Under the pieces are notes generated by a model. The model worked only from the letters and a program-made list of their open reading frames with translations, was not told the origin of the DNA and did not search any database. 42,051 nucleotides of DNA from contig JAULTB010000003.1 of assembly GCA_038801655.1 (NCBI GenBank), positions 1 through 42,051 of the forward strand. Direction: 5' to 3'. This document shows, one piece after another, positions 29,376 to 42,051 of this stretch. The position numbers and the translations under genes are program-made. Origin of the DNA: Candidatus Methanosuratincola thermotaenarum. GTDB lineage: Archaea; Thermoproteota; Methanomethylicia; Methanomethylicales; Methanomethylicaceae. Numbering within the stretch: the first letter of the stretch is position 1; each line of letters begins with the position of its first letter.

Positions 29376-30161
29376 TCAGAACTCGAACTTCCTTATTATG
29401 TTCTTCTCTTCTGCTCCAGTGATCTCCGCTATGACATGGATGTAATTGCCCAGGCCTGAGCTCTCAATCCTGGGCTTAAGAAGCTCGTCTATCTGGAATA
29501 TCCCTGCGGAGTTCGACAATGAAATCCTAACTATCACCGGCTTCTCTGGCGCGATCCCTTCCTGTATCCTCACCTTTTCCACGCTCAGCGCCGAGACCGA
29601 GTGTATGTCGATCTTCCCTGCCTCAAAGGGGAGCCTGGCCCTCCCTTTTTCCATGTCGAGGGCATCTGCCACCTTCACCACGCCCCCTTCCAAAGTCAGC
29701 GGTCTGTGAGGCTCTTCGTGCGATACAATCGCATGCATCACTTCCGAAGTCACAACTGCTGCGCCATGGGGGCTGTAGGCGCCACCAAGTATCGACTCCA
29801 GCGCGTTCATCGCGACAGCCGCGCCGAACAGCTCGTGCCCCTCCCTGGCCACGATCATTCCTGCATCATGGAAGAGGGCTCCAAGGACGACTACCACCTC
29901 CGCATCATCTTTCTCCATTGCATAATCCTTCACTATGCTCGGCACAACGCCGTTTTTCATAAGGATCCTGAGTATCTTAAGAGCCGAATTCGCGACTATC
30001 TTGACGTGCGTGACTCCGTGATCGGTGTACCCGAGCCGCTCGATGGCCATTATGTTCGAGCACTTCCAAATCGCCTTGAGCCTCTCATTTCTCTCGATCT
30101 TCTGGACTATTGCCTTCAGCTTTTCGTTGCTTCCGCAAGGCAGGCTGAAGTCAAGGGACAT
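29376..30161 (-). CDS. HD-domain metal-dependent phosphohydrolase
   Basis: H...HD signature: HGVTHVKIV ... LGALFHDAGM ... HAIVSHE. The start is set at MSLDFSL to avoid overlap with the marC-like gene. Confidence 0.75.
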   Translation of the reverse strand: MSLDFSLPCGSNEKLKAIVQKIERNERLKAIWKCSNIMAIERLGYTDHGVTHVKIVANSALKILRILMKNGVVPSIVKDYAMEKDDAEVVVVLGALFHDAGMIVAREGHELFGAAVAMNALESILGGAYSPHGAAVVTSEVMHAIVSHEEPHRPLTLEGGVVKVADALDMEKGRARLPFEAGKIDIHSVSALSVEKVRIQEGIAPEKPVIVRISLSNSAGIFQIDELLKPRIESSGLGNYIHVIAEITGAEEKNIIRKFEF

Positions 30162-30210
30162 GTTCAGACCTCCATTCAGACAGAGACAGCTCGCCGTCCA
30201 GCCGCCGGAT

Positions 30211-30807
30211 CTACCCTCCGATATATGCTCCAACTAGCCCGCTCCTTATCATGCCTATCGCGATTGCCGATAGTATGAATGCCATTATCCTTGATATAAT
30301 CGTTGAGCCTGCCCTTCCCAGTACCTTCATGAGCTTGTTGGAGGATCTCAGGAGCGCCCACTGCAGGATTACATTCGTTATTATTGCGAAAAATGCCACC
30401 AACGGACCGTTTGGAGGCTGCATCAGGTACATGACCGTGTAGATGCTCCCTGGGCCGGCCATGAGCGGGGTTGCTAGGGGGACTATTGCGACATCTTCCC
30501 TGTTCATCCAGCGCCCCTCCTCCTTGCCCAAGAGGCCTTCGATGGACATTATGAACAGGAGCACCCCGCCAGCTATCTTGAAGTCGTTCATTGATATGTT
30601 GAAAAGATCGAGTATATACGATCCTATAACCGCAAAAACGACTAAAATCACGAACGCAACCTTCACCGAGTCGTTCAGTATTTTGTTCTTTTTCTGCGCC
30701 TCAAAAGAGCTCGTGAAGGCATGGAAGAGCGGGACATTGCCTATGGGGTCAAATATGATGAACAGCGTAAGGAAGCCCTGGAAATATATCCACAAAGTGT
30801 CGACCAT
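30211..30807 (-). CDS. MarC/UPF0056 family integral membrane protein
   Basis: 198 aa with six hydrophobic helices. The N-terminal FIIFDPIGNVPLF motif is typical of MarC-family proteins. Confidence 0.8.
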   Translation of the reverse strand: MVDTLWIYFQGFLTLFIIFDPIGNVPLFHAFTSSFEAQKKNKILNDSVKVAFVILVVFAVIGSYILDLFNISMNDFKIAGGVLLFIMSIEGLLGKEEGRWMNREDVAIVPLATPLMAGPGSIYTVMYLMQPPNGPLVAFFAIITNVILQWALLRSSNKLMKVLGRAGSTIISRIMAFILSAIAIGMIRSGLVGAYIGG

Positions 30808-30866
30808 GCTCAGCCACTTTAATCTCTAACGAAGTTATATATCAGCATTAGCTGAAGAAGATAGTG

Positions 30867-32051
30867 ATGCCTAGTGAAAGGTTTGACAAGATCTGCCCGT
30901 CGCCGATCTCGTTCCTGGAAAAGGGTTGCGCCCCCCCAGTTGGAGTCATAAGGTTCGATGTGGCAGAGCCAGATTTCCCGCCCCCAGAGGAAGCCGTGGA
31001 GGCGACAAGGCATGCCTTGTCGAGCGGCAAGTTCAAGTACAGCCCGAGCCGGGGAATTCCAGAGCTTAGGGAGGCATTGGCAGCCTTCCTAAAATCGACT
31101 CGGCAGATCGAATATTCCATGGACGAGATCCTTGTCACTACAGGGGGCAAGTTCGCGAACTATGCCTTCTTCGCTTCGCTGCTGAGCCCGGGAGACTCGG
31201 TCGTCCTCATAAAGCCTTTCTGGACCAGCTTCAAGGCAGTGCCCGAGATGCTTGGGATAAGGACGGTCGAGGTGTGGGCGACAACGCCTTACCATCTGGA
31301 TGAGGAGGCGCTCAAGTCAGTGGTCGATGGGAGGGTGCGCGCCATCGTCCTGAACTCGCCGAACAACCCCACCGGGGGCATTCTTGGCGAGTCCGATCTA
31401 AGGCTGGTCAGAGATTTGGCAGAGGACCACGACCTGCTTGTCCTATCCGACGAGATTGATTGGGCTTATGTCTACGCCGATAGGCGCTTCGTCTCCCCCG
31501 CTTCAATAGAAGACCTAAGGGACCGGGTGGTAGTGACTGACGGCTTCTCCAAGGTCTTCTGCATGACCGGTTGGAGGGTGGGCTTTGCAGCAGGGCCAAA
31601 AAAACTGGTAGACCGCCTGCACATGGTCCAAGAGCATGCAGTGAGCTCGCCATCAACATTCGCCCAATACGGCTGTCTGCGGGCACTTGAAGTCTACCGG
31701 GAATACCTTGAGAGAAACCTTGCGGCCTGCAGGAGCAACCTGGGGATTGTTTTGGAGAGGTTGAACTCGACCGGTGCGATAGAATGCCCCAAGCCGGAGG
31801 GCGGATTCTATGCCTATCCAAGGATAGACCCTGCCCTCTGTTCCAGCCTGGAATTTTGCAAGGGTCTCCTGGAAAGCGAGGGGGTGGCTGTGATTCCGGG
31901 CGAGTATTTTGGAGACGACAGGAACCGCTTCAGGCTCTGCTATGCAGTCAAACAAGAATTGTTGGAGGACGGCCTCGAGAGGGTAGCCAGATTTGTGGAA
32001 GTCCTGAAGAGCAAAAACCGCCATTCAACAGGGAAGAAGATAAAAAAATAA
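30867..32051 (+). CDS. Class I/II PLP-dependent aminotransferase (aspartate/aromatic type)
   Basis: NSPNNPTG, the PLP-lysine motif FSKVFCMTGWRVGF, and C-terminal RLCYA. Confidence 0.9.
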   Translation: MPSERFDKICPSPISFLEKGCAPPVGVIRFDVAEPDFPPPEEAVEATRHALSSGKFKYSPSRGIPELREALAAFLKSTRQIEYSMDEILVTTGGKFANYAFFASLLSPGDSVVLIKPFWTSFKAVPEMLGIRTVEVWATTPYHLDEEALKSVVDGRVRAIVLNSPNNPTGGILGESDLRLVRDLAEDHDLLVLSDEIDWAYVYADRRFVSPASIEDLRDRVVVTDGFSKVFCMTGWRVGFAAGPKKLVDRLHMVQEHAVSSPSTFAQYGCLRALEVYREYLERNLAACRSNLGIVLERLNSTGAIECPKPEGGFYAYPRIDPALCSSLEFCKGLLESEGVAVIPGEYFGDDRNRFRLCYAVKQELLEDGLERVARFVEVLKSKNRHSTGKKIKK

Positions 32052-32063
32052 AAAAAACAGATA

Positions 32064-32207
32064 TTACTTCGACGAAGCCCTGAAGAAAGCCCCGCAGCTC
32101 GGGCACTTGTAGAGCCCGACTGTAACTGCCTTCTTGCCTTTGGGAGCTAGCGTCCAAGTTTTTTCTGGTTTTGCGACCTCAGTTCCGCATTTTGAACATT
32201 TTGCCAT
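32064..32207 (-). CDS. 47-aa zinc-ribbon protein (CxxC...CxxC), not in the supplied ORF track
   Basis: Manual translation gives [50 protein letters not shown] is at 32207-32205 and TAA at 32066-32064. A+T-rich promoter-like DNA lies upstream. Confidence 0.6.
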
Positions 32208-32467
32208 TTTTTACCATCTCTGGATTTATCATTATCATTGGTCTGGGTTTAAAAGGTTTACCAAAATCTTCCGCACCGATCTCCCGTAGATTCTGGCGTG
32301 CATGTAGTGACAGTTCTTGCACGCCCCGAAGAATTTTTGTTTACCAGTTTACTTTTATATAAAGAAGTAGGGGGGAAATTTAAAAAATTGCACAATTTGA
32401 TGACCTCATTTTTCCCCAAAAAAAGGAAATGTTATAATGCGCATGCTTCCAATCAGATCTGATCCTA

Positions 32468-32836
32468 ATGACTACTTCGTTTATACTGGACTCGAGCGTG
32501 TGCAACCACAAAAGCAGGGCGGTTGCCATATTCGAGGCCGGATCAATCTCGTTTGTTGTCGAGTCTTCCTGCCCTCTCGTGAATGACTTTGGCAGGTCTT
32601 TATCCTCGTCACCTCTGAAGGTAAGGGAGATCACGAGGAGGATCTGCGAGAACCCGATTTACCTCAAGGCAACCGAGAACAATGTGCACCCGAACTGCAT
32701 TGTGCCCTGTGGCGTGGCGATGTGCGGATGGGCTGAAGCAGGCCTGGTCTCAAAGACGCTCTTGGAGAGGTTCCCTTCGCAGTGCGCCACATACGAAGGA
32801 GGCGGAGGGCGGGAGATCGATCTCAGTAAGCCCTGA
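32468..32836 (+). CDS. Hypothetical Cys-rich protein (122 aa)
   Basis: G/C-ending codon preference resembles neighbouring genes. A TATA-like GTTATAAT sits about 30 nt upstream of the ATG, so the mRNA looks leaderless. The CIVPCGVAMCG cluster is present. No family recognised. The 3' end overlaps the convergent ACT gene by 14 nt. Confidence 0.45.
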   Translation: MTTSFILDSSVCNHKSRAVAIFEAGSISFVVESSCPLVNDFGRSLSSSPLKVREITRRICENPIYLKATENNVHPNCIVPCGVAMCGWAEAGLVSKTLLERFPSQCATYEGGGGREIDLSKP

Positions 32837-33203
32837 TCCCTGCCTCAGACAGTGCATTCTTGGCTTTCGATTCGTCGTCGACCTTCACCACTATCCTGCC
32901 CATGTCCATTGTGTACGCATAGTCGACATTGATGCCTTTCTCGCCGAGGACCTTGACCGCGTTATGGAGATCTTTCATGTCTATTATGATCACTTCAACC
33001 AGGTTCACTGCAGTATTGGCGTTCCTAAGCACTTCTGCAGCCTTCTCCGGGGCATCCAGTATGCACCTCACGATGCCATAGTTCCCCGCCTCGGCTATGC
33101 CCATTGCGAGGACCCTTATCTGGTTCCTTTCAAATAAGTCGATCACATTCGAGAGCCTTCCCGGCTTGTTCTCGAGGAAGATGCTGAACTGCTTGACCAT
33201 CAA
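32823..33203 (-). CDS. ACT-domain protein (PaaK-associated)
   Basis: Two ACT-like halves: FSIFLENKPGRLSNV ... and GINVDYAYT. It lies immediately downstream of the paaK-like gene, a common pairing. Confidence 0.8.
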   Translation of the reverse strand: MMVKQFSIFLENKPGRLSNVIDLFERNQIRVLAMGIAEAGNYGIVRCILDAPEKAAEVLRNANTAVNLVEVIIIDMKDLHNAVKVLGEKGINVDYAYTMDMGRIVVKVDDESKAKNALSEAGIRAY

Positions 33204-33211
33204 AAATCCCC

Positions 33212-34504
33212 CTAAATCTTCCTTAGGTCTATTATCCTTTGAGCTTTTCCTTCGCTCCTTGGCAGCGTCCTCGGCTCTGTGAGCTCGACAGCTGCGCTTA
33301 TGCTAAGCACATCCCTTAGCTCTTCCTCGAGGCGCTTCTGGAGATCCACTATCTCCGTCAGGCTGTCGCTCTTGAAGTCCTCGGAGACCTCCACCTTCAC
33401 AAGCAGGCGATCCAGCGGACCATCCCTGTCGACTACGAGCTGGTAGAATGGCGTTAGCCCCTCGAAGCCCGATATGACCTCTTCGATCTGGCTCGGGAAG
33501 ACGCAAATCCCCCTGATCTTCAGCATGTCGTCGGTCCTGCCAAGTATCTTCTTTATCCTTGCATGTGCTATGCCGCACTCGCAGACCTCGTCGTCCAGTA
33601 TTGTTATGTCGCGCGTCCGGTACCTGAGGAGCGGCATCCCCTCCTTCTCGAGCGTCGTGACTGCCATCTCCCCCTTCTCCCCGGGCTCGAGAACTTCACC
33701 CGTGTTGGGATCGATTATCTCCACTAAGTAGTGGTCCTCCCAGACGTGCAGACCGTTCTTCTTCCTGCACTCTATGGCAACGCCCGGGCCATTGAGCTCT
33801 GACATCCCGTAAATGTCATGCGCGGACTGCATGAACTCCTCCTCCAGGACTTTCCGTGTGCTCTCAGACCAGGGCTCTGCCCCCAATACGCCGACCCTCA
33901 GCTTAAGGTCTCTCTTCGGGGCAATCCCCTCCTCCTTTGCGCTCTCTGAAAGAAAGAGTGCATATGACGGCGTGCACGCCAGCACCGTTGTGCCCAGGTC
34001 TTTCATCAACTTGAGTTGCCTTTTCGTGTTGCCTGTGCTCGCGGGTATCACCTTGGCTCCTAGCCGCTCTGCCCCGTAGTGGAGGCCGAGCCCGCCGGTG
34101 AAGAGACCGTACCCGTAGGCAACCTGCACCACGTCTTCGCTCGTGACCCCGCAGACCTCGAGGCACCTCTTGTTGAGCTCAGCCCATGCGTCTATGTCCC
34201 TCTTGGTGTATGCCACCACTGTCGGGTTTCCCGTAGTGCCTGAAGACGCATGCATCCTTACGATCTTGGACTTCTCGACGGATATGAGCCCGAGCGGATA
34301 ATTGTCGCGAAGATCGGTCTTTGTCGTGAAAGGGATCTTCCTAATGTCCTCAGGACGGAAGTTTGTGATGTCGATCCCTGCCTCCTTCAGCCTTCGCCTG
34401 TAGAAAGGCGAGTTCTCGTAGACCCTGGCAACGACTTCTTTAAGCCTCCTTGCCTGCAGTTCCTTGATCTGCTTTTTATCCATCGTATACGCTTGAATGG
34501 ACAT
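33212..34504 (-). CDS. paaK: Phenylacetate-CoA ligase family (PaaK / F390-synthetase-like adenylating enzyme)
   Basis: AMP-binding motif is MHASSGTTGNPTV, plus YGMSE and the C-terminal DDMLKIRG. Confidence 0.85.
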   Translation of the reverse strand: MSIQAYTMDKKQIKELQARRLKEVVARVYENSPFYRRRLKEAGIDITNFRPEDIRKIPFTTKTDLRDNYPLGLISVEKSKIVRMHASSGTTGNPTVVAYTKRDIDAWAELNKRCLEVCGVTSEDVVQVAYGYGLFTGGLGLHYGAERLGAKVIPASTGNTKRQLKLMKDLGTTVLACTPSYALFLSESAKEEGIAPKRDLKLRVGVLGAEPWSESTRKVLEEEFMQSAHDIYGMSELNGPGVAIECRKKNGLHVWEDHYLVEIIDPNTGEVLEPGEKGEMAVTTLEKEGMPLLRYRTRDITILDDEVCECGIAHARIKKILGRTDDMLKIRGICVFPSQIEEVISGFEGLTPFYQLVVDRDGPLDRLLVKVEVSEDFKSDSLTEIVDLQKRLEEELRDVLSISAAVELTEPRTLPRSEGKAQRIIDLRKI

Positions 34505-34624
34505 ACTGGTCAGCTGGAATTATGGCGGAAACACCAATTTTATTCCTTTTGGCTAAGAATTCTCGACCACCGCCTGCCATACCTTAAAATACCATGCTGT
34601 CTTGGATGATCAGGGGGGATTTGA

Positions 34625-36001
34625 TTGAAGGTTGCTCTTGTCAATCCTCCTGCACACCAAAGTTTCGAAATTCAGTCAGCGCTGGGCTTGAACGCGCCGC
34701 CCTTGGGGCTGGCTTACATCGGCGCCGTCCTTGAAAGGGACGGCTATGATGTGACCATAATTGATGCACCAATCTTATGCGAGTCACAAGAAGGCGTGAT
34801 TAAAAAATTACAGTCGATGAAGCCAGATGTGATAGGAGTCACATCAACAACGCCAAATATAGGAGATTCTGTGAGTTTAATCACCAAAATCAAACAAAAG
34901 ATGCCAGACGCAGTTACAGTACTCGGAGGATGTCACATCACATTCATGCCTGAGGAGACGATGGGCACGTGCCCTGCGATCGATGTCGGGGTGATCGGCG
35001 AAGGGGAAGCCACCATGCTGGAGCTCGTGCGCTCGATCGAGGGCAGGAGACCATTGGAAACAGTTGACGGGATTGCAATTAGGAAGGGGGGGAAGATCCG
35101 AAAGACCCGACCGCGTCGCCTTATCGAGGATCTTGACAAGCTCCCCTTCCCAGCCAGGCATTTGTTGCCGATGGACAATTACACAGCCCTTGGGGAAAGG
35201 ACGCCCATAGGGAATGTGATCACGAGCAGGGGGTGCCCCTTCAGGTGCATATTCTGCGCTTCGTCTAGGCTCTATGGCAACACCTTCCGCGCGAGGAGCC
35301 CGGAGAATGTGTACGAGGAGATCAGTGAACTGGTAGACAGGTACAGGATAAATTTCTTTGAATTTGTAGACGACACATTCACAATAAACAAAAAGCGGTC
35401 TTTCCGATTGGCAGAGCTGCTCCGGAAACTCGACGTCTCCTGGGCATTCGGTTCTAGGGTGGACACAGTCTCCAGCGAAATTCTCCAGGCCTTCAGGCGA
35501 GCTGGGGCACTGATGTTCTACATGGGCATTGAGTCCGCCTCTGAGCGGGTCCTGCGCATAATGAAGAAGGGCATAACGCTGGGGCAAGTCAGATCAGCAA
35601 TCTCCTCCGCCAAGAAAGCAGGTCTGGAGGTGACCGGATCGTTCATAATCGGGACTCCTGGAGAGAGCAAGGAGGAGGCGATGCAGACCATAAAATTCGC
35701 GATCCAATCGGGGATTGACTATGCGCAGTTCACGGCGATGACCCCGTACCCCGGAACGGAGGTTTATGATTTCGCCAAAGCGAACAGTCTCATCGAGACC
35801 GAAGACTGGTCGAAATACACCACGATCAAGCCGGTCATGCGGACTTTCGAGATGACTGCTGAGGAGATCCGCTCGCTAGTCTCGATGGCCTACAGGAAAT
35901 TCTACCTACGGCCGAAGTTCTTGGTCATGCAGGTTGCCAAGAGGCGGATCCTCATGCTTAAGCCGATCCTAAAGCGGTACCTGGTGAAGAGGAGGTCCTG
36001 A
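34625..36001 (+). CDS. B12-binding-domain radical SAM protein (class B)
   Basis: N-terminal KVALVNPP...GLAYIGAVLERDGYDV is a cobalamin-binding Rossmann-like domain. The radical SAM cluster motif is CPFRCIFC. TTG start preceded by GGGGGGAT. Confidence 0.85.
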   Translation: MKVALVNPPAHQSFEIQSALGLNAPPLGLAYIGAVLERDGYDVTIIDAPILCESQEGVIKKLQSMKPDVIGVTSTTPNIGDSVSLITKIKQKMPDAVTVLGGCHITFMPEETMGTCPAIDVGVIGEGEATMLELVRSIEGRRPLETVDGIAIRKGGKIRKTRPRRLIEDLDKLPFPARHLLPMDNYTALGERTPIGNVITSRGCPFRCIFCASSRLYGNTFRARSPENVYEEISELVDRYRINFFEFVDDTFTINKKRSFRLAELLRKLDVSWAFGSRVDTVSSEILQAFRRAGALMFYMGIESASERVLRIMKKGITLGQVRSAISSAKKAGLEVTGSFIIGTPGESKEEAMQTIKFAIQSGIDYAQFTAMTPYPGTEVYDFAKANSLIETEDWSKYTTIKPVMRTFEMTAEEIRSLVSMAYRKFYLRPKFLVMQVAKRRILMLKPILKRYLVKRRS

Positions 36002-36047
36002 GAAGCAAGGTTGCACAGGGAACTCGAGTAGCTTATTGACCATGCCA

Positions 36048-36593
36048 TTATCCGCCAATCGACTTGATCAGCTCCTCCTTTAGGTCCCTCTGCAAAATCT
36101 GCTGGTAAGCGCTTACCGCCTTCGAGGATCTCTGTCCCAAGAGCTTCCTGCAGATCGAGGGGTCCCGCACAGTCTCCAGCAGCCGGATCGCGAAGGCATG
36201 CCTCCAACTGGCGACCCTTATCCTCCTCCCGAGGATCATCTCTGTGTACTTGTGGTTTATGTTGAGCGCCTGCCTGCGGGTCAGCCCGAAGATCCTTTCC
36301 TCTGCTTTCTTGTCCTTTGCATAGTCCTTGAGATATGGCAGTATCGAGGGCATTATCAGAACCTCGCGTGCATCCCCCTCCTGCCCTACACGGGCTATCC
36401 CATGCTGGAAATCAATGTCCCCTTTCCTAATCGAGATCAGCTCGGACGTCTTCATGCCTGTCGTCGGATAGAGGCTCATCAGGACGAAGTCCCTAAGGCT
36501 TATCTCCCTCTTCCTGTACAGGGACCTTATCCTGTCCAGGAACTCGCCGACTTCCGACCATGTTGGGACATCGTCAAGTTTCAGCTTTGCCAT
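36048..36593 (-). CDS. Short tyrosine-recombinase-like protein, catalytic domain only, with degenerate active-site residues
   Basis: Paralogous along its whole length to the next gene. It has TGMKTSE (Arg-I is Lys), ASWRHAF (His-II is Ala, Arg-II kept) and LLGQRS (His-III is Gln). The Tyr is kept in SAYQQI. Confidence 0.75.
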   Translation of the reverse strand: MAKLKLDDVPTWSEVGEFLDRIRSLYRKREISLRDFVLMSLYPTTGMKTSELISIRKGDIDFQHGIARVGQEGDAREVLIMPSILPYLKDYAKDKKAEERIFGLTRRQALNINHKYTEMILGRRIRVASWRHAFAIRLLETVRDPSICRKLLGQRSSKAVSAYQQILQRDLKEELIKSIGG

Positions 36594-36617
36594 TTTTGAT
36601 TACCATCATGCCTTCAG

Positions 36618-37181
36618 TCAGTTTATCTTTATCGCGTCTGAAACCTCTTTCATCCTGTCGCCTATCGTGAAGTCCAGATAGATCTTAACGGTCTCCAGCC
36701 TCGAGTGACCGATCAGCCTCCTGCAGAGCTCAATGTCCCTTGTCTTCTCGAGGATGCGTATCGCGTAGGCGTGGCGCAGGGCGTGGCTCCTGATGCGCCT
36801 GCCCAAAAACCTCTGCGTGTACCTGTGGGTTATGTTGAGCACTTGGCGCCTGCTCAGGTCGAATACCCTATCGCCCTGTACCTGCTTGAAGTACTCCTTG
36901 ACAAATGTCTTCAGGTCCTGGCTGAGGATAGTCTGCCTGGCGAATTCGTCCTTCTTCTTCAGCTGGGTTATTGTAATGATGTTGGTCTCGAAGTCAAAGT
37001 CGGACTTCTTGAGGAGCAGGAGTTCAGACGTCCTTATCCCGGTCGTGGCGAGCAAGCCTATGACGCAGAGGTCCCTGAGCGGTGCCTCGCCTTGCCTGTA
37101 AGCCTTGATCATTGAGCCGACGAGGACCTCAACCTCCCTCCAGGACGGGACGTCCCTCAGCTCCAGCCTCTGCTTGGGCAC
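36618..37181 (-). CDS. Short tyrosine recombinase (phage-integrase family), catalytic domain only, canonical active site
   Basis: TGIRTSEL (Arg-I), a K-rich beta hairpin, HALRHAYA (His-II/Arg-II), and LIGHSRLETVKIY (His-III and Tyr). GTG start with a TTTATA-like box about 40 nt upstream. Confidence 0.8.
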   Translation of the reverse strand: MPKQRLELRDVPSWREVEVLVGSMIKAYRQGEAPLRDLCVIGLLATTGIRTSELLLLKKSDFDFETNIITITQLKKKDEFARQTILSQDLKTFVKEYFKQVQGDRVFDLSRRQVLNITHRYTQRFLGRRIRSHALRHAYAIRILEKTRDIELCRRLIGHSRLETVKIYLDFTIGDRMKEVSDAIKIN

Positions 37182-37232
37182 GCATTACACCCTGTTTCCC
37201 TATTATGTCGGATCGGAGGGTATAAAATCTTT

Positions 37233-37796
37233 TCAAAGATCCAAAACAACATCGAACAAATCCATCAGCTTTCCAAGCTGCAGCCTTTCCTTATCGTTTA
37301 TTCCAGACCCCTTGTCGCCGAAGAAACCCCCCCAGTAAGCAGTCCCAACAAATGTCATCGCCTGGGCCACTGCTTCACCGAGCAGCTCTGCGCTTCCGGA
37401 CTGCAGGTAGATTGTAATGTCGTTCGCAAAAAGCACAGGCGTTGGCGATGCAATGTACTGTGATAAACATGGCTCGATCGCTAAGGCATTCTGCTTGGCC
37501 AGGCACACAACTTCTTCTGCGGTGGAACCTTCGAGTCGTGGTGCAACTATGCGCTTAGGCGCAGCGTATAGTATCCGCGCCCTTGTCGAAGCGGGAATGG
37601 CAAGCCGCCCGCCCACCTTTCTACCCCCCACGGGCTTCTCTTCCGGGGCCATGTCGATCACTGTTATTGCGCCGGGTCCTTCCGACTCGGCAGCCTCAGC
37701 CAGGAGGCGGCTTAGCAGGGCGGTCTTACCTCTCCCGACCTCCCCGCGTATCAGCGTCTTCTTGCCCTTGATCGCCGCGTAGCTAATCCCATTCAA
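37233..37796 (-). CDS. Uncharacterised P-loop NTPase, translationally coupled to thiW
   Basis: Walker A is GEVGRGKTALL, followed about 25 aa later by ITVIDMAPE. There is no ABC signature. The TTG start is preceded by GGAGGGG at 5 nt and overlaps the thiW stop by 14 nt. Confidence 0.7.
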   Translation of the reverse strand: MNGISYAAIKGKKTLIRGEVGRGKTALLSRLLAEAAESEGPGAITVIDMAPEEKPVGGRKVGGRLAIPASTRARILYAAPKRIVAPRLEGSTAEEVVCLAKQNALAIEPCLSQYIASPTPVLFANDITIYLQSGSAELLGEAVAQAMTFVGTAYWGGFFGDKGSGINDKERLQLGKLMDLFDVVLDL

Positions 37797-38307
37797 TTAC
37801 GCCCCTCCTCTTCAGGGCCAAAATTACAAGATAGCCCATTAATGCCCCGGGGACGCTGCTCATCAGGAAAAAGACTGTGAACAGCTGCCACTGGGCAGTC
37901 AGCCCGAGAAATGGGGGCAACTGGGCTGCACCAATGGCTGGCGCAACCAGGAACGCGCTCAGCAAAGCCCCGATCGCTGTGCCCAACGGCTCTGTGAGGG
38001 CTACTGCGTCTTTCCTGACTAAATAATTGTAAACCAAACCGACCACCAATGCGCCTGGGATCCCACCAGGCAAGGCAAAAAAAGTGCCCGTCCCTATGCC
38101 TATCCGTATTATGCCGATCAGCCCGGCCACAATGCCCGCGTTAAGCGGACCGAGCAGGATTCCTGCAACCACATTTACCATATGTTGGAAAGGGAAGACC
38201 TTTGTTGGTCCCACTGGGAATGCCCCTGGGAAAATCGATAAAGAAACACCAAGCGCAACAAATATTGATGAAAGGACTAACCGGTAAGTTGGGGTTTTTA
38301 AATGCAT
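37783..38307 (-). CDS. thiW: ThiW-type thiazole/thiamine-precursor transporter S-component
   Basis: VFPFQHMVNVVAGILLGP ... GTGTFFALPGGIPGALVVGLVY matches my recollection of ThiW, and a TPP riboswitch lies directly upstream. The in-frame TTG at 38364 (GGAGGG 9 nt upstream) is an alternative start. Confidence 0.75.
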   Translation of the reverse strand: MHLKTPTYRLVLSSIFVALGVSLSIFPGAFPVGPTKVFPFQHMVNVVAGILLGPLNAGIVAGLIGIIRIGIGTGTFFALPGGIPGALVVGLVYNYLVRKDAVALTEPLGTAIGALLSAFLVAPAIGAAQLPPFLGLTAQWQLFTVFFLMSSVPGALMGYLVILALKRRGVIEWD

Positions 38308-38371
38308 TATTTTTTTATTCTTGTAATTAGGCTTTTTCTCAAGATTTTGCCTTTTTGAAGCCAAACAGCAT

Positions 38372-38455
38372 GTCCCTCCGCTGGAATTGCCCAGATCAGG
38401 TTCAAAGGGTCGGCGACGGATCAAGTCACCCTCTCAGCCCCTTTCCAGGAGCTCC
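38372..38455 (-). promoter_or_regulatory. TPP (THI-box) riboswitch aptamer
   Basis: The minus strand reads CUCCUGGAAAGGGGCUGAGAGGGUGACUUGAUCCGUCGCCGACCCUUUGAACCUGAUCUGGGCAAUUCCAGCGGAGGGA. It carries the invariant CUGAGA, ACCC...GAACCUGAUCUGG.(U)AAU.CCAGCG and closing GGGA elements. A TATA-like CTTATAAA sits about 30 nt upstream (38483-38490). Confidence 0.85.
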
Positions 38456-38746
38456 CCCTTTGCACTCCAACTTTCCTGTAAGTTTATAAGTATTCCTATT
38501 ACCTGTTTATAGGGATGGCAAACATTTTTTATTTTAATAGTCAAAACATTTAAACTAGATAATAAAAATTTAAAATTTAGGATTTTTTACCATAATTATA
38601 ATAAGGATTAATAATATTTAATATTATATGGCTTTTCTTATCTTGTTTAAGTTAGTGCTAACCAAATCAGCGAATATTAAAAATTTTTATAAAAATAAAA
38701 GTTATCTATATTTTAAAAAATAATACGAAAAAATTAATTTAAATTG

Positions 38747-38946
38747 GACGGTTTTAGCCCACCATCAAATCGCGTTCCCTGAGCGGAAGCCAATGTTTTA
38801 AGTGTCTCAGGGGGCGATAAGCGCACTGGGCTTTAGCGGTTGGGCAGGGATGAGTGAGAGGTCTATGCGACACGAAATATCCTTGCAGTTTCTGATGTTT
38901 GAGGGGGAATTAAATTTGAAGAATCGTCGCCCGGGGCCGCCGTTTT
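38747..38946 (+). ncRNA. Candidate structured ncRNA (G+C-rich island in an A+T-rich spacer); family not recognised
   Basis: Nested helices: 38756-61/38827-32 encloses 38774-83/38806-15 (10 bp, 2 G-U). 38836-45/38929-40 (10 bp, 2-nt bulge, 2 G-U) encloses 38846-51/38879-84. A TATA-like TTTTAAAAAA lies about 30 nt upstream and a T5 run at 38943-47. The G-U pairs work only on the plus strand. Confidence 0.3.
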
Positions 38947-38949
38947 TAT

Positions 38950-38980
38950 CATTTCCCAATCTAGGTGAGAATGGGAAATG
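38950..38980 (+). terminator. Perfect 9-bp hairpin followed by T-rich tract
   Basis: CATTTCCCA (38950-58) pairs with TGGGAAATG (38972-80) around a 13-nt loop. TTTTTCCTTTTATTTT follows within 30 nt. Confidence 0.25.
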
Positions 38981-39341
38981 GTGCAAAGGCGGGATCTGCT
39001 GAAATTTTTCCTTTTATTTTCTTATTATGGAAATTTTGGGAAATAAGAATTTTCGCGGGGGTTCTGAGGATTTAGGGGCGGCCTACAGGATCCCAAAAAC
39101 ATTTTTATTAAAAAATGATTAATATTTTAAATGAAAAAAATGCATTGGTATTCAGATTATTTTTTAATTTGCATTTTTATTTTCCAAAACGCTCCGCCCC
39201 CATTTTTGTAAATTAGTTTACTATGAACGCTAGAATCTAGATGCAAGTGAAAGAACTCTTGGTATCAGATATCTTGAGAGATTTGCTAAAAAACCATAAA
39301 TTATTATATAACAAAAGCTACCATTAACACAGGCGAGTGCT

Positions 39342-40145
39342 ATGGTCTTGACTTTCCAGGAGCTGCTTGGCGGATCGCGTGCAACCAAGGTCAACGCTAC
39401 GCTCCCCTGGCAAGTCGCGTTCTATGGGCCTGGGCCGCCGCCCGTCGTGGCGGACGTGCTCACCAGCGCCCGGAGGGGGGCTTTTTACGAGGAGATTGTA
39501 AAGCTATCGGACATACGGCAGAGGCACGATGCCAGGGCCATACTCGTATCCCCCAGGAGGCGGATCGGTGTGGACGATGCCCGGTTGGCAACCTCTTTCG
39601 GAATATATGTGGTCCTGGACGGCGACCAGGATGGCTTGAGCATGGCCTCAAAAGGGGCCGACGTGGGCGAGGTCAACTCTCGCTTTGTTGAGGCAGCCCT
39701 GAAAAATAGGAGCAGGAGGGCGGCTTCGGATTGCAGGTCTGCCATAATCGAACTTCTCCGGGAAAAGTGGCTCACCCTTGGGGAGCTGGTCTCAAGTCTC
39801 CGCCTTTCTTTCGATGCCAGGACGGTGACCGCCCAGCTCAGGTCCCTTGCGAGGGGCGGCGGCGTGCGTCTGCTGGCAAGGACTGTGGAGGGCGAGGGCG
39901 TTTACGGGCTTCCCGGCATCCAGTACCCCGTGAGGGGGGACCTGTCAAGGCCGTCTAGGCTCGCGTACCTGGAGAGGGCAGCGATCGAGATGCTTTCTGG
40001 CTCTGACCGGCCCCTGACTTCGTCTGAGATGAGCGAAAGGCTCAATGTGAGCCAGCACCAGGTGAGATCGCTTATGAGAAAGTTGGCTGGAGCGCGAAAG
40101 GCAGCAAGGGCTGGCGATGGATGGGTTTTTTCAGGGAAAAAGTAA
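39342..40145 (+). CDS. Orphan protein with an N-terminal alpha/beta domain (possibly PD-(D/E)xK-like) plus two winged-helix DNA-binding domains
   Basis: 267-aa G+C-rich ORF. A TATA-like TTATTATATA lies 32-41 nt upstream of the ATG, so the mRNA looks leaderless. wHTH-like segments are AIIELLREKWLTLGELVSSL...RSLARGGGVRLL and IEMLSGSDRPLTSSEMSERLNVSQHQVRSLMRKL. The N-terminus has FYGPGPPPVVADVL...YEEIVK...AILVS. Confidence 0.6.
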   Translation: MVLTFQELLGGSRATKVNATLPWQVAFYGPGPPPVVADVLTSARRGAFYEEIVKLSDIRQRHDARAILVSPRRRIGVDDARLATSFGIYVVLDGDQDGLSMASKGADVGEVNSRFVEAALKNRSRRAASDCRSAIIELLREKWLTLGELVSSLRLSFDARTVTAQLRSLARGGGVRLLARTVEGEGVYGLPGIQYPVRGDLSRPSRLAYLERAAIEMLSGSDRPLTSSEMSERLNVSQHQVRSLMRKLAGARKAARAGDGWVFSGKK

Positions 40146-40292
40146 CAAATTAATTTCGAAAATCGCCTAGATTAGGCAAAAATTGTTTATTTTTCAAAAT
40201 TGGATTTTCAAACAGCTTAAAGGCGAAAAAAATCCCAAGCCTTAAAAAATATCCTTACAGAAGGTAATAATTGAATATGTGTGTGCAAACTT

Positions 40293-41087
40293 ATGATGCC
40301 TGTCCATATCAACGACATTTACTATGAGCCAGAAAAACAATTTTGTGGACTGTACATAGCCTCAAAAATATCTATGCCTGAATTTGATCCTACTCTAGAA
40401 CTCCTTAGGATATTGAATGAAAATAAGGTTTGTTTCTTAAGCATATCTTCCCACAGAAGCGAAGACACCGTTCATAACTTCATAACTTTAGACCTTACAG
40501 ACGATCCTGAATTAAAAGAGTTGATTGTAAAACATATAAAAGAAAAATTTGGCAATCGGCTGGTATACTTCGAGTGCGCCGACTCCGGCGTCCCAGGGCT
40601 GATATACAACATGAACGGATACCCCGTGATCCTCAACTTATCGGGTCGCCCAATGCAGGTGGCTGCGATGACAACTTTGGGCTGGAAGAGCCTCGTGATG
40701 GGGATGATTAGGAGATACAAGGGCGACGCGATGCTGATGCTCTGGAACATGGGCAACGACTTCGGGGAGGCTCACGGGAGGACCCTTCTTGAGATGAAGG
40801 GGCTGAGCGACAGGCACCGGATCAGGATCGGGCTCGCGGTGCTCCAGGCGCTGGGCTGGGGGAATTTCGAGCTTGCAGAGTGCGACGAGTTCGGGAAAGT
40901 GGTGGTAATAAGGGCGAAAGAGAACTTCGAGGAGCTCATAACATGGGAGCTGCTCGACTACGAGAACCGCTTCCTCCTCGGGTTCTTTGTCGGGCTCGTG
41001 AGCAAGGTATTCGACAAGGCATGCAGGGGCACTGAAGTGAAGTGCATCAAGCTAGGAGACCCGTACTGCGAGTTCGTGATCAGGTGA
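40293..41087 (+). CDS. V4R (4-vinyl reductase) domain protein with an A+T-rich-encoded N-terminal extra domain
   Basis: The C-terminal 170 aa show the V4R pattern, ending GTEVKCIKLGDPYCEFVI. The N-terminal ~90 aa are encoded by visibly A/T-ending codons yet stay open, so they are coding. Confidence 0.8.
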   Translation: MMPVHINDIYYEPEKQFCGLYIASKISMPEFDPTLELLRILNENKVCFLSISSHRSEDTVHNFITLDLTDDPELKELIVKHIKEKFGNRLVYFECADSGVPGLIYNMNGYPVILNLSGRPMQVAAMTTLGWKSLVMGMIRRYKGDAMLMLWNMGNDFGEAHGRTLLEMKGLSDRHRIRIGLAVLQALGWGNFELAECDEFGKVVVIRAKENFEELITWELLDYENRFLLGFFVGLVSKVFDKACRGTEVKCIKLGDPYCEFVIR

Positions 41088-41969
41088 TCAAACAAGCGGC
41101 TCCGGACACGTGTCTGCCGAATACGGGATCTTCTCGACCTTGATAAGGAATTTCTGCCTGCTTGCCTTCACCTTCTCCAGGACTAGGCATTTTCCCCTCT
41201 CTGTTAGCGCGAAGACCGGGACAGCCGAACCAGCCTGAATCAGCGCCTTCCCCGCAGCCGCCTCCCTGATCCACTTGGATGCGCAACCCGACACCAAGTC
41301 CGCAACCTCGACCATCCTGAATGCATCCTCCTTACCGATCCCCGTCAAGTGGACTCCGAATATGAGCGCATCCGGGTGCTTTGCCCTTATCCTCTCGCCG
41401 TCTGCTGGGTCGGTTATAGTGACGGCAACATCCGAGCACCCCATCTGGTACGCAAGATCGGCCCCCTCGACTTGGTCGATCCTTGCGGTCTTTCGGTCCA
41501 GGACAGCCCCTCCTAGGGACTCTATCCTTTCGATGAGCCTTGGGATGGGCGAAGTCGAAACCAGCCCGGACATCCTCCCCCCTATCCCCTGGACCAGATC
41601 CGGGTTCGTAGCTATCACCGTCCCCGCTCCCTCGCAGACGATCACAGCCGCGCCAAAGATCTTCGCCCTGAGCCCTTGGCTTATCATTTCTGATGCGCCG
41701 AAGGTCACAAAGTCCTGCGATGACTCGAGCAGCCGGTCCCCAGTGCACATCCCATGCGATCTGATCCTGCCCTCAATGTTTTTGCGGACCTTCTCTGGGG
41801 TGATTATATCCACGGGGGTGGAGAACTTCTTCGCCAGCGGGCATTCCCTGATCATGGGCGGCCCGACCTCGATCACCAGCCCGCCCCTGACCACAACGCG
41901 GGACCTGCCTATCGCTTCAATCACGTGCTCGTCTTGATCGGGCATCTTTGCATCGAAAAGTTGATACAC
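41088..41969 (-). CDS. DUF2099 / methanogenesis-marker-8-like protein
   Basis: DEHVIEAIGRSRVVVRGGLVIEVGPP.I.ECPL, HGMCT.DR, AVIVCEGAGTVIATNPDLVQGIGGRMSGLVSTSPIP match my recollection of the family. The start is M1 (41969) or M9 (41945). Confidence 0.7.
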   Translation of the reverse strand: MYQLFDAKMPDQDEHVIEAIGRSRVVVRGGLVIEVGPPMIRECPLAKKFSTPVDIITPEKVRKNIEGRIRSHGMCTGDRLLESSQDFVTFGASEMISQGLRAKIFGAAVIVCEGAGTVIATNPDLVQGIGGRMSGLVSTSPIPRLIERIESLGGAVLDRKTARIDQVEGADLAYQMGCSDVAVTITDPADGERIRAKHPDALIFGVHLTGIGKEDAFRMVEVADLVSGCASKWIREAAAGKALIQAGSAVPVFALTERGKCLVLEKVKASRQKFLIKVEKIPYSADTCPEPLV

Positions 41970-42051
41970 GCCTTCGGATAATATCTCTTTTGCCGATGAA
42001 GATAGTCATGCAAACCGATGGGAAAGATGAGGGCCCCTAGGGTATCTGAGG

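Follow-up and report, generated by a model that had tools for sequence, protein, structure and literature searches.

We have analysed two adjacent genes for short tyrosine recombinases in a stretch of 42,051 nucleotides from Candidatus Methanosuratincola thermotaenarum (contig JAULTB010000003.1, positions 1 to 42,051; hereafter the window), a member of the archaeal class Methanosuratincolia, also called Methanomethylicia or Verstraetearchaeota (Thermoproteota). Both genes are read from the reverse strand. The upstream gene (36618-37181) starts with GTG and encodes 187 amino acids (aa), and the downstream gene (36048-36593) starts with ATG and encodes 181 aa. We refer to them here by the working labels recA-type (recA) and recB-type (recB). 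The assignment of recA draws on its open reading frame (ORF), the PF00589 and XerA profiles, a family alignment, and AlphaFold2 (AF2) and Foldseek comparisons; that of recB draws on its ORF, alignments, the ratio of nonsynonymous to synonymous substitution rates (dN/dS), AF2 and RNA contigs. Upstream of the pair, a non-coding gap contains a palindrome that is the candidate target of recA. Loci and contigs of relatives are designated by L-numbers and homologous proteins by P-numbers, and the loci of relatives were viewed as stretches of up to 10 kb on either side of the match.

Architecture and active sites of the two recombinases

The sole Pfam match of each protein was PF00589 (E = 1.1e-21 for recA and 8.5e-13 for recB), aligned over about positions 10-168 of the 172 in the profile, and at 77.7 and 48.9 bits against a gathering cut-off of 27.1 both are members of the superfamily by fold. 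The best NCBIfam match of both was archaeal XerA (NF040815), over its C-terminal two thirds (model positions 87/93-262 of 263; 87-258 for recA). The scores of 98.8 bits for recA and 71.7 bits for recB fall below the curated cut-off of 220, and the profile search detected no SAM-like N-terminal (core-binding) domain in either protein, so that neither score nor domain architecture places them in XerA itself. The AF2 models had predicted local distance difference test (pLDDT) values of 85.4 for recA and 88.4 for recB, the latter modelled as a tyrosine-recombinase catalytic fold. They superposed solely on the catalytic domains of XerA (4a8e, 5hxy) and XerH (5jjv); the query TM-scores were 0.70-0.79. 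The target TM-scores of about 0.4-0.5 indicate coverage of no more than the catalytic half of the solved structures. XerA 4a8e was the best Foldseek match of the recA model, and the Cre catalytic domain was also among the fold matches of the models.

The original prediction described the two genes as adjacent paralogues reduced to the catalytic domain, and this description holds: both ORFs are present as described, with PF00589 as the sole domain. The two proteins share an N-terminal D-V-P-x-W motif and 41% identity over 165 aa (E = 1e-43). The alignment runs from end to end, and they are therefore paralogues and not two halves of one broken gene, which settles the possibility, raised at the outset, that they are fragments of a single disrupted integrase. 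The 51 bp between recA and the upstream P-loop gene leave no space for an N-terminal domain, and the gap between recA and recB is 24 bp. A split gene supplying the missing domain was considered and rejected, as the neighbouring genes encode the P-loop protein and ThiW and have no match to a SAM-like domain.

In the alignment of 18 recA family members, R50, K75, H133, R136, H159 and Y168 were invariant and lined up with the catalytic residues of Pyrococcus abyssi XerA. The upstream copy thus has the full R-K-H-R-H-Y set that had been read from its sequence, that is, the catalytic pentad and the tyrosine. In recB of the window, the Arg-I position is occupied by Lys48 (TGMKTSE), the position of the hairpin Lys by Asp (GQEGDAR versus GKGGKDR), His-II by Ala (ASWRH) and His-III by Gln (LGQRS), and Arg-II (Arg131) and Tyr163 are retained; the alignment bears out the proposed degeneration of this copy in every detail. 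Across 13 aligned recB sequences, Arg-I is Lys in 13/13, the beta-hairpin is shorter by 4 residues and lacks the conserved Lys in 13/13, and Arg-II and Tyr are invariant in 13/13. His-II is A, E, S or D, and His-III is Q, Y or L, with H only in lineage L087. With 4/6 catalytic residues missing and only Arg-II and Tyr left, recB is a superfamily member by fold and not a predicted enzyme.

Arg-I to Lys changes abolish cleavage in the recombinases that have been studied, and the R225K mutant of the Tn1549 integrase has reportedly been used for structures. Judged from its residues, recB most likely cannot cleave DNA, and by analogy with the Arg-I to Lys mutants of known recombinases it should bind DNA without cleaving it.

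The candidate palindrome upstream of recA

When the non-coding gap was compared among relatives, a single conserved block stood out, the near-perfect 29-bp palindrome ATTTCCCAATC-TAGGTGA-GAATGGGAAAT at 38951-38979. It is formed by inverted arms of 11-12 bp, with the half-site consensus RTTTCCCAWTMT, around a centre of 5-7 bp that varies freely, and its flanks diverge and are not conserved beyond the genus. The palindrome is intergenic, lies 1.8 kb from recA in the window, and is the one match to TTTCCCA-N11-15-TGGGAAA in 42 kb, where 0.01 would be expected. In a control of 812 kb of bacterial Xer neighbourhoods there were 0 matches, with the relaxed pattern included. Exactly one palindrome is found 1.1-3.3 kb upstream of recA in each of 31 chromosomal loci, which together carry 21 distinct sequences, and of these 20 have a length of 29 bp. 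Which genes stand between the site and recA depends on the lineage (ThiW and P-loop genes, a DsrE-type gene or a methyltransferase gene) and the linkage is retained, also in lineages that have recA without recB. The loci without the palindrome all have too short an upstream flank, the sole exception being L088.

We consider this palindrome a candidate core site, dif-like or att-like, of the recA family. The original prediction had recognised neither an att site nor a tRNA target by eye. The first of these statements now gives way to a candidate, outside the coordinates that had been considered, and the second stands, since neither a tRNA nor a tmRNA target was found in the 42-kb window. A repeat search over 30000-42051 returned only short pairs of low identity and no convincing flanking pair. 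An AT-rich repeat pair (I7) flanking the GC-rich island of the gap was set aside, as it looks like chance and is not conserved. The palindrome was also considered as an RNA stem, a reading that was rejected because the inner arm positions are often not complementary.

An extra half-site, ATTTCCCAAA, is located at 39035-39044 on the reverse strand, 65 bp from the palindrome, and is conserved in the Methanosuratincola loci L001 and L011; it may be an accessory binding site. Other recB-bearing lineages have extra half-sites at different placements and most recA-only lineages have none, in a comparison where the L087 lineage was represented by L113 and L118. The association of extra half-sites with recB is a weak trend in a small sample and is confounded by phylogeny.

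The centre of the palindrome (38962-38968) reads TAGGTGA in the window and its reverse complement, TCACCTA, in L001 (3625-3631) and L011. Despite the inverted centre, the flanks and the arms, one asymmetric position among them, are collinear between the window and these two loci, and the same relation is seen between L004 (TGAGGTA) and L005 (TACCTCA). The inverted centre may stem from a very small inversion of the loop type, or it may be a mark left by activity at the site.

Distribution, expression and neighbourhood of the pair

Homologues at 90-93% identity are present in Candidatus Methanosuratincola verstraetei and M. petrocarbonis, and sequence words of the window were found in oil-field metagenomes. 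Clustered at 90% identity, the recA-type proteins fall into about 80 groups, nearly all of 187-196 aa, and every named one is from Methanosuratincolia/Methanomethylicia; the recB-type proteins form 15 clusters. Across all chromosomal contigs obtained from the class, recA is at one syntenic locus, with 62-96% identity among the sequences. Contig look-ups and two scans of collections gave a consistent gene order around recA: H+-translocating pyrophosphatase, DUF2099, V4R protein, a 265-aa winged-helix protein, the non-coding gap, ThiW, a 187-aa P-loop protein, recA, recB and a convergent B12/radical-SAM gene. Sequence and gene order thus indicate that recA is inherited vertically at one chromosomal locus throughout the class.

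On the one hand, recA and recB are conserved as a pair in several lineages, as had been asked of a genuine pair, namely Methanosuratincola, the Methanomethylicus-like lineages (L005, L123, L125), the L087/L113 type and the L004/L120 type. On the other hand, recA stands without recB at the same locus in L008-L010, L088, L105-L112, L119, L121, L135, L138 and L147. In the recA-only loci L010, L088, L104, L105 and L122, the radical-SAM gene starts 13-50 bp after recA, and in the L107 type the slot of recB is occupied by an unrelated 363-aa repeat protein. In a neighbour-joining tree, the recA clade had a bootstrap value of 92 and the recB clade one of 100, the branching of recB mirrored that of recA, and one recA-only lineage was nested among recB-bearing ones. 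This mirrored branching and the nested lineage indicate that recB is old, has diverged together with recA, and was lost at least once.

Within Methanosuratincola, four well-diverged comparisons (dS of about 0.6-1.0) gave dN/dS values of 0.09-0.10 for recB and 0.05-0.08 for recA; the closest pair, which is noisier, gave 0.28 and 0.105. The RNA data come from two metatranscriptomes of a mixed culture with a strain about 92% identical. Two of their contigs, 36245-37184 and 36373-37158, cross the 24-bp gap between recA and recB. Contig depth is 23-52 over recA and recB versus 5-14 over the ThiW and P-loop genes, with a contig break at about 37184-37204. A sequence TTTTATA at 37221-37227 on the reverse strand, just past the stop codon of the upstream P-loop gene and about 40 nt before the GTG of recA, is a possible archaeal TATA box for the recA-recB transcript, as read from the sequence. 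Taken together, the contigs over the gap, the step in depth, the break near 37190 and the TTTTATA box suggest that recA and recB are probably transcribed as a unit of their own, which lies downstream of the ThiW operon that is controlled by a thiamine pyrophosphate (TPP) riboswitch. We conclude that recB is a maintained, expressed gene and not a pseudogene. Between the ends of recB and of the convergent B12/radical-SAM gene lie 46 bp (36002-36047), and since metatranscriptome contigs cross both 3' ends, the two transcripts probably overlap.

Outside the chromosomal clade, the nearest homologues are P0084 and P0086, at 48-50% identity, on two mutually syntenic contigs from Logan assemblies that we read as virus-like or plasmid-like, L184 (1-9618; the same as L089) and L090 (1-4988). 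These contigs encode a C2H2 zinc-finger gene that overlaps the recombinase start, a protein with P-loop and helix-turn-helix (HTH) parts, and membrane proteins, and almost none of their small ORFs has a family. L184, of 9.6 kb, also encodes a pair of proteins of about 530 aa each, and DUF2341 is present in one of them. Each virus-like contig has one palindrome of the same type, TTTTCCCATTCTATTAGGATTGGGAAAT and AATTCCCAAAACTATACTGTTTTGGGAACT, and the recombinases of these elements group with recA in the tree. One extra half-site is present in L184 at 4749. No terminal overlap that would close either contig into a circle was found. The two contigs are possibly an undescribed mobile element of Methanosuratincolia or their relatives.

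The closest relatives in a library of 1.84 billion proteins were mostly short recombinases, and among IMG/VR viruses there was no close relative, the best match having 31% identity. In other short-recombinase subfamilies, TTCCGAAA...TTTCGGAA or ATTCCCAAAA palindromes are found 0-100 bp upstream of the gene. In subfamilies L126-L131 and L141-L142 (about 180-190 aa), TTCCGAAA...TTTCGGAA is located 60-100 bp upstream, and ATTCCCAAAATG...TTTTGTGAAT abuts the start codon. At 6 matches versus about 0.5 expected, these palindromes are weaker evidence than the one upstream of recA, and their arrangement suggests a family-wide module of gene plus site. In the representative library, the 851-aa protein P0109 has four tandem catalytic domains (PF00589, 4 stretches, 232 bits) and no core-binding domain; either such a protein exists as a covalent tetramer, or gene calling has fused tandem genes for short recombinases.

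The non-coding gap itself (38469-39341) is unusually long, at about 870 bp, and AT-rich (about 40% GC), with a GC-rich island at about 38745-39000 and a genus-conserved block, ACCATCAAATCGCG, near 38770. Other strains of the same samples differ from the window between about 38712 and 39297. The island was considered as a small gene and as a non-coding RNA, and both were rejected: ORFs of 66-73 aa do not align as proteins and the indels are not multiples of three, a search of Rfam with E up to 1 gave only the TPP riboswitch, and no RNA contigs lie over the island. This riboswitch (38356-38468, reverse strand; Rfam, 64.5 bits) precedes the gene of a ThiW-type thiazole-precursor transporter (37783-38424, reverse strand). 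The ThiW gene is overlapped by that of the conserved 187-aa P-loop protein (37233-37796, reverse strand), which has no family and may be a non-orthologous thiazole kinase. In L088, the P-loop gene ends with a stop codon that overlaps the start of recA by 4 nt.

On the other side of the gap, the forward-strand winged-helix gene (39342-40145) encodes 267 aa of no known family, with weak HTH matches only. Its homologues are restricted to this archaeal class and are all annotated as hypothetical, and the gene is present in all palindrome-bearing chromosomal loci and missing from the virus-like loci. The palindrome may be bound by this protein and not by recA, or the protein may assist the recombinase as an accessory factor. 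It was also considered as an Orc/WhiP-like initiator, with the AT-rich gap as an origin, and this was rejected, as neither a family nor a structure match was found and the AT-richness is not conserved in other lineages.

A possible Xer-like system and its alternatives

As a tentative reading, we propose that the locus encodes a minimal Xer-like recombinase with a linked dif-like site and a non-catalytic, modulating paralogue. In this proposal, recA would be an Xer-like catalytic domain that dispenses with the core-binding domain and acts on the linked 29-bp palindrome, its most likely substrate. Each RTTTCCCAWTMT arm would be bound by one protomer, and strands would be exchanged in the 5-7-bp centre. 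Recombination between two copies of the palindrome would then resolve chromosome dimers, as at dif. The palindrome may also serve as a docking site for the related virus-like elements, which have their own recA homologue and the same palindrome and may integrate there. The recB gene would be an old tandem duplicate that has kept the fold, the P-x-W motif, Arg-II, Tyr and the C-terminal helix. Arg-I has been replaced by Lys, the hairpin Lys is gone, and nearly all lineages are without both histidines. The protein is probably a non-catalytic subunit, or a competitor on the half-sites of recA, that restrains or directs recombination as an accessory and not as a required component. The genes and their association with the site are solid, as are the active-site states, the conservation and synteny, the purifying selection and the co-transcription; that recA binds the palindrome, which reaction takes place there and what recB does we infer.

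The archaeal XerA/dif system, represented by the P. abyssi (4A8E) and Thermoplasma (5HXY) enzymes, is the best match of both proteins in sequence and fold. Like it, recA has the full R-K-H-R-H-Y set and is chromosomal, once per locus, and the candidate site has arms of about 11 bp and a short spacer in an intergenic position. Inverted arms of about 11 bp, a short spacer and an intergenic location are the features by which archaeal dif sites have been predicted (PMC2958812), and the geometry, uniqueness, conservation and position of the palindrome accordingly suggest that recA is an Xer-like enzyme acting on it. Unlike XerA, recA and recB have no core-binding domain, and recA stays at less than half of the curated score. 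The RTTTCCCAWTMT arms, compared by eye and without formal comparison, show no resemblance to dif. Another difference is that some lineages have a degenerate paralogue beside recA. Moreover, dif is not beside xerA in Thermococcales (PMC2958812), whereas the palindrome described here is linked to recA.

Linkage of this kind has a precedent in bacteria. XerS and XerH are bacterial two-domain proteins of about 350-360 aa that are coupled to FtsK. In these respects they differ from recA; they resemble it in that one recombinase acts on a near-palindromic site (XerS/difSL, XerH/difH), and XerH is among the best structural matches. The single recombinase XerS is genetically linked to its site difSL (PMC2731167), and archaea are without FtsK according to a review of archaeal tyrosine recombinases (PMC8371274).

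With regard to recB, the original prediction went beyond the gene structure and proposed an obligate heteromer, by analogy with XerC/XerD, or a regulatory partner. XerC and XerD are both active, each on its own arm of an asymmetric dif. The present pair resembles them in that two paralogous recombinases plausibly share one site. It differs in that recB is without most catalytic residues, the arms are near-identical, and recB is missing from many lineages. Since recA alone occupies the same locus in so many lineages, and since the site is nearly symmetrical even beside recB (the arms of L005 form a perfect 12-bp palindrome although recB is present), an obligate heteromer of the XerC/XerD kind is not supported. 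The proposal of a regulatory or pseudo-active partner fares better in part. A gene that is maintained, expressed and degenerate makes a non-catalytic partner or regulator a reasonable reading, and the recA-only lineages speak against the obligate side of the partnership. A comparable case is MrpR (YopR) of Bacillus phage SPbeta, which has a recombinase fold, has lost the function and binds a repeated DNA element as a repressor (PMC10516654). Like MrpR, recB has the recombinase fold with catalytic residues lost, and YopR (8bj6) ranked 50 among its fold matches. Unlike recB, MrpR is encoded by a phage and has no active paralogue alongside, and its 8bj6 chain has 320 residues; moreover, recB keeps Tyr and Arg-II.

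Several observations weigh against the proposed system. In L088, which has recA only and broken upstream synteny, there is no palindrome within 6 kb of recA. The palindrome lies at a constant 360-420 bp from the winged-helix gene, to which it could belong instead. In the tree, recB falls outside a group of recA and the mobile-element homologues with weak support (bootstrap values of 47-54), and the link to mobile elements comes from two virus-like loci only. The invariance of Tyr and Arg-II in recB is unexpected for a purely structural subunit. In public unitig assemblies (Logan), neither recombinant junctions nor inversions were found at the locus, and the sole difference was one of 88 bp in length in another strain.

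Among the alternatives, the one that survives best, although we regard it as somewhat unlikely, is that the locus is what remains of a virus or plasmid that integrated long ago and became domesticated. The palindrome would then be the attB of the virus-like elements, and recA and recB would serve integration, excision or exclusion and not segregation. The nearest homologues outside the chromosomes, in virus-like contigs (L089/L184 and L090) that hold the same palindrome, would fit such an origin, as would the grouping of their recombinases with recA and the predominance of short recombinases among the closest relatives in the protein library. However, each chromosomal locus has one palindrome, so that there is no attL/attR pair, and no locus was found with an element inserted at the palindrome. 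Housekeeping genes make up the neighbourhood, and recA has stayed at one locus across the class under strong purifying selection.

The palindrome might instead be the operator or binding site of the 267-aa winged-helix protein, or of another factor, and be found with recA through conserved gene order, the real target of recA being elsewhere or unknown. Palindromes are typical operators, the distance to the winged-helix start is 360-420 bp in all chromosomal loci, and L088 has lost the winged-helix block and is also without the palindrome near recA. The constant distance and this double loss mean that the site could be that of the winged-helix protein, or that this protein is an accessory factor of the recombinase. 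Nevertheless, the virus-like loci combine the palindrome with a homologue of recA and have none of the winged-helix protein, and related half-site palindromes are found beside other short-recombinase genes that have no such neighbour. The 360-480 bp that separate the palindrome from either flanking gene start would be far for an archaeal operator, and arms of 11-12 bp around a variable centre of 5-7 bp are the geometry of a recombinase core site. For these reasons we consider the operator unlikely.

A third possibility, quite improbable in our view, is that recB is competent by an unconventional route, with a Tyr donated in trans as in Flp or with a Lys/Arg/Tyr site, and that the pair is a true two-enzyme heteromer. 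In its favour, Tyr163 and Arg-II are invariant in 13/13 sequences although four other catalytic positions have changed, and the Lys at Arg-I is strictly conserved and not random. Against it, the same Arg-I to Lys change abolishes cleavage in studied recombinases, the hairpin bearing the general-acid Lys is shorter by 4 residues, His-II and His-III vary freely among orthologues, and recA would appear to work alone in many lineages.

The remaining comparison is with FimB/FimE of Enterobacteria. There, the two proteins are each active, and the segment that they invert has an inverted repeat at either end. An invertase pair of this kind, flipping a nearby promoter-bearing segment, is very improbable: the architecture is alike (adjacent paralogous genes for catalytic-domain-only recombinases of about 190-200 aa, with no N-terminal core-binding domain), tyrosine-type DNA invertase models match weakly (E = 2.5e-9) and the central 7 bp are inverted between the window and its relatives, but there is a single copy of the site in 42 kb with no inverted pair bounding a segment, the genes around the site keep one order and one orientation across all lineages, the assemblies contain no joints, one paralogue is degenerate, and the sequence similarity is weak, with recA scoring 36.9 and 33.8 bits on the Fim invertase models NF007371 and NF007370 against cut-offs of 222 and 221 and recB giving no match.

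In summary, we describe a minimal Xer-like recombinase family, a palindromic site linked to it and a natural pseudo-recombinase paralogue, with functions that we infer. In the usual description, a tyrosine recombinase clamps DNA with two domains, and even the "simple" class of the 2021 classification consists of a core-binding and a catalytic domain (PMC8138268). In the archaeal review (PMC8371274), a search by terms found no passage on such short cellular enzymes, and a literature search returned no paper on tyrosine recombinases in Verstraetearchaeota or Methanosuratincola. As a pseudo-recombinase under selection beside its active parent, recB would be a clean natural example. The common palindrome offers a handle for finding viruses and plasmids of Methanosuratincolia, on which the literature search found no paper.

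A wider and more doubtful extension of our proposal is that the whole class resolves chromosome dimers with a catalytic-domain-only recombinase and a gene-linked palindrome instead of the canonical XerA/dif. Some lineages would have added an inactivated controlling subunit (Arg-I to Lys, Tyr kept) in place of FtsK-type control, and related viruses would integrate at the palindrome with their own copy of the enzyme. How dimer resolution is controlled in archaea without FtsK is an open question (PMC8371274; PMC2958812), and a linked site with a dead subunit would provide a testable model. If the proposal is true, a conserved cellular enzyme of about 187 aa and its 29-bp target would be the smallest natural system of its kind in archaea and a compact candidate for in vitro work.

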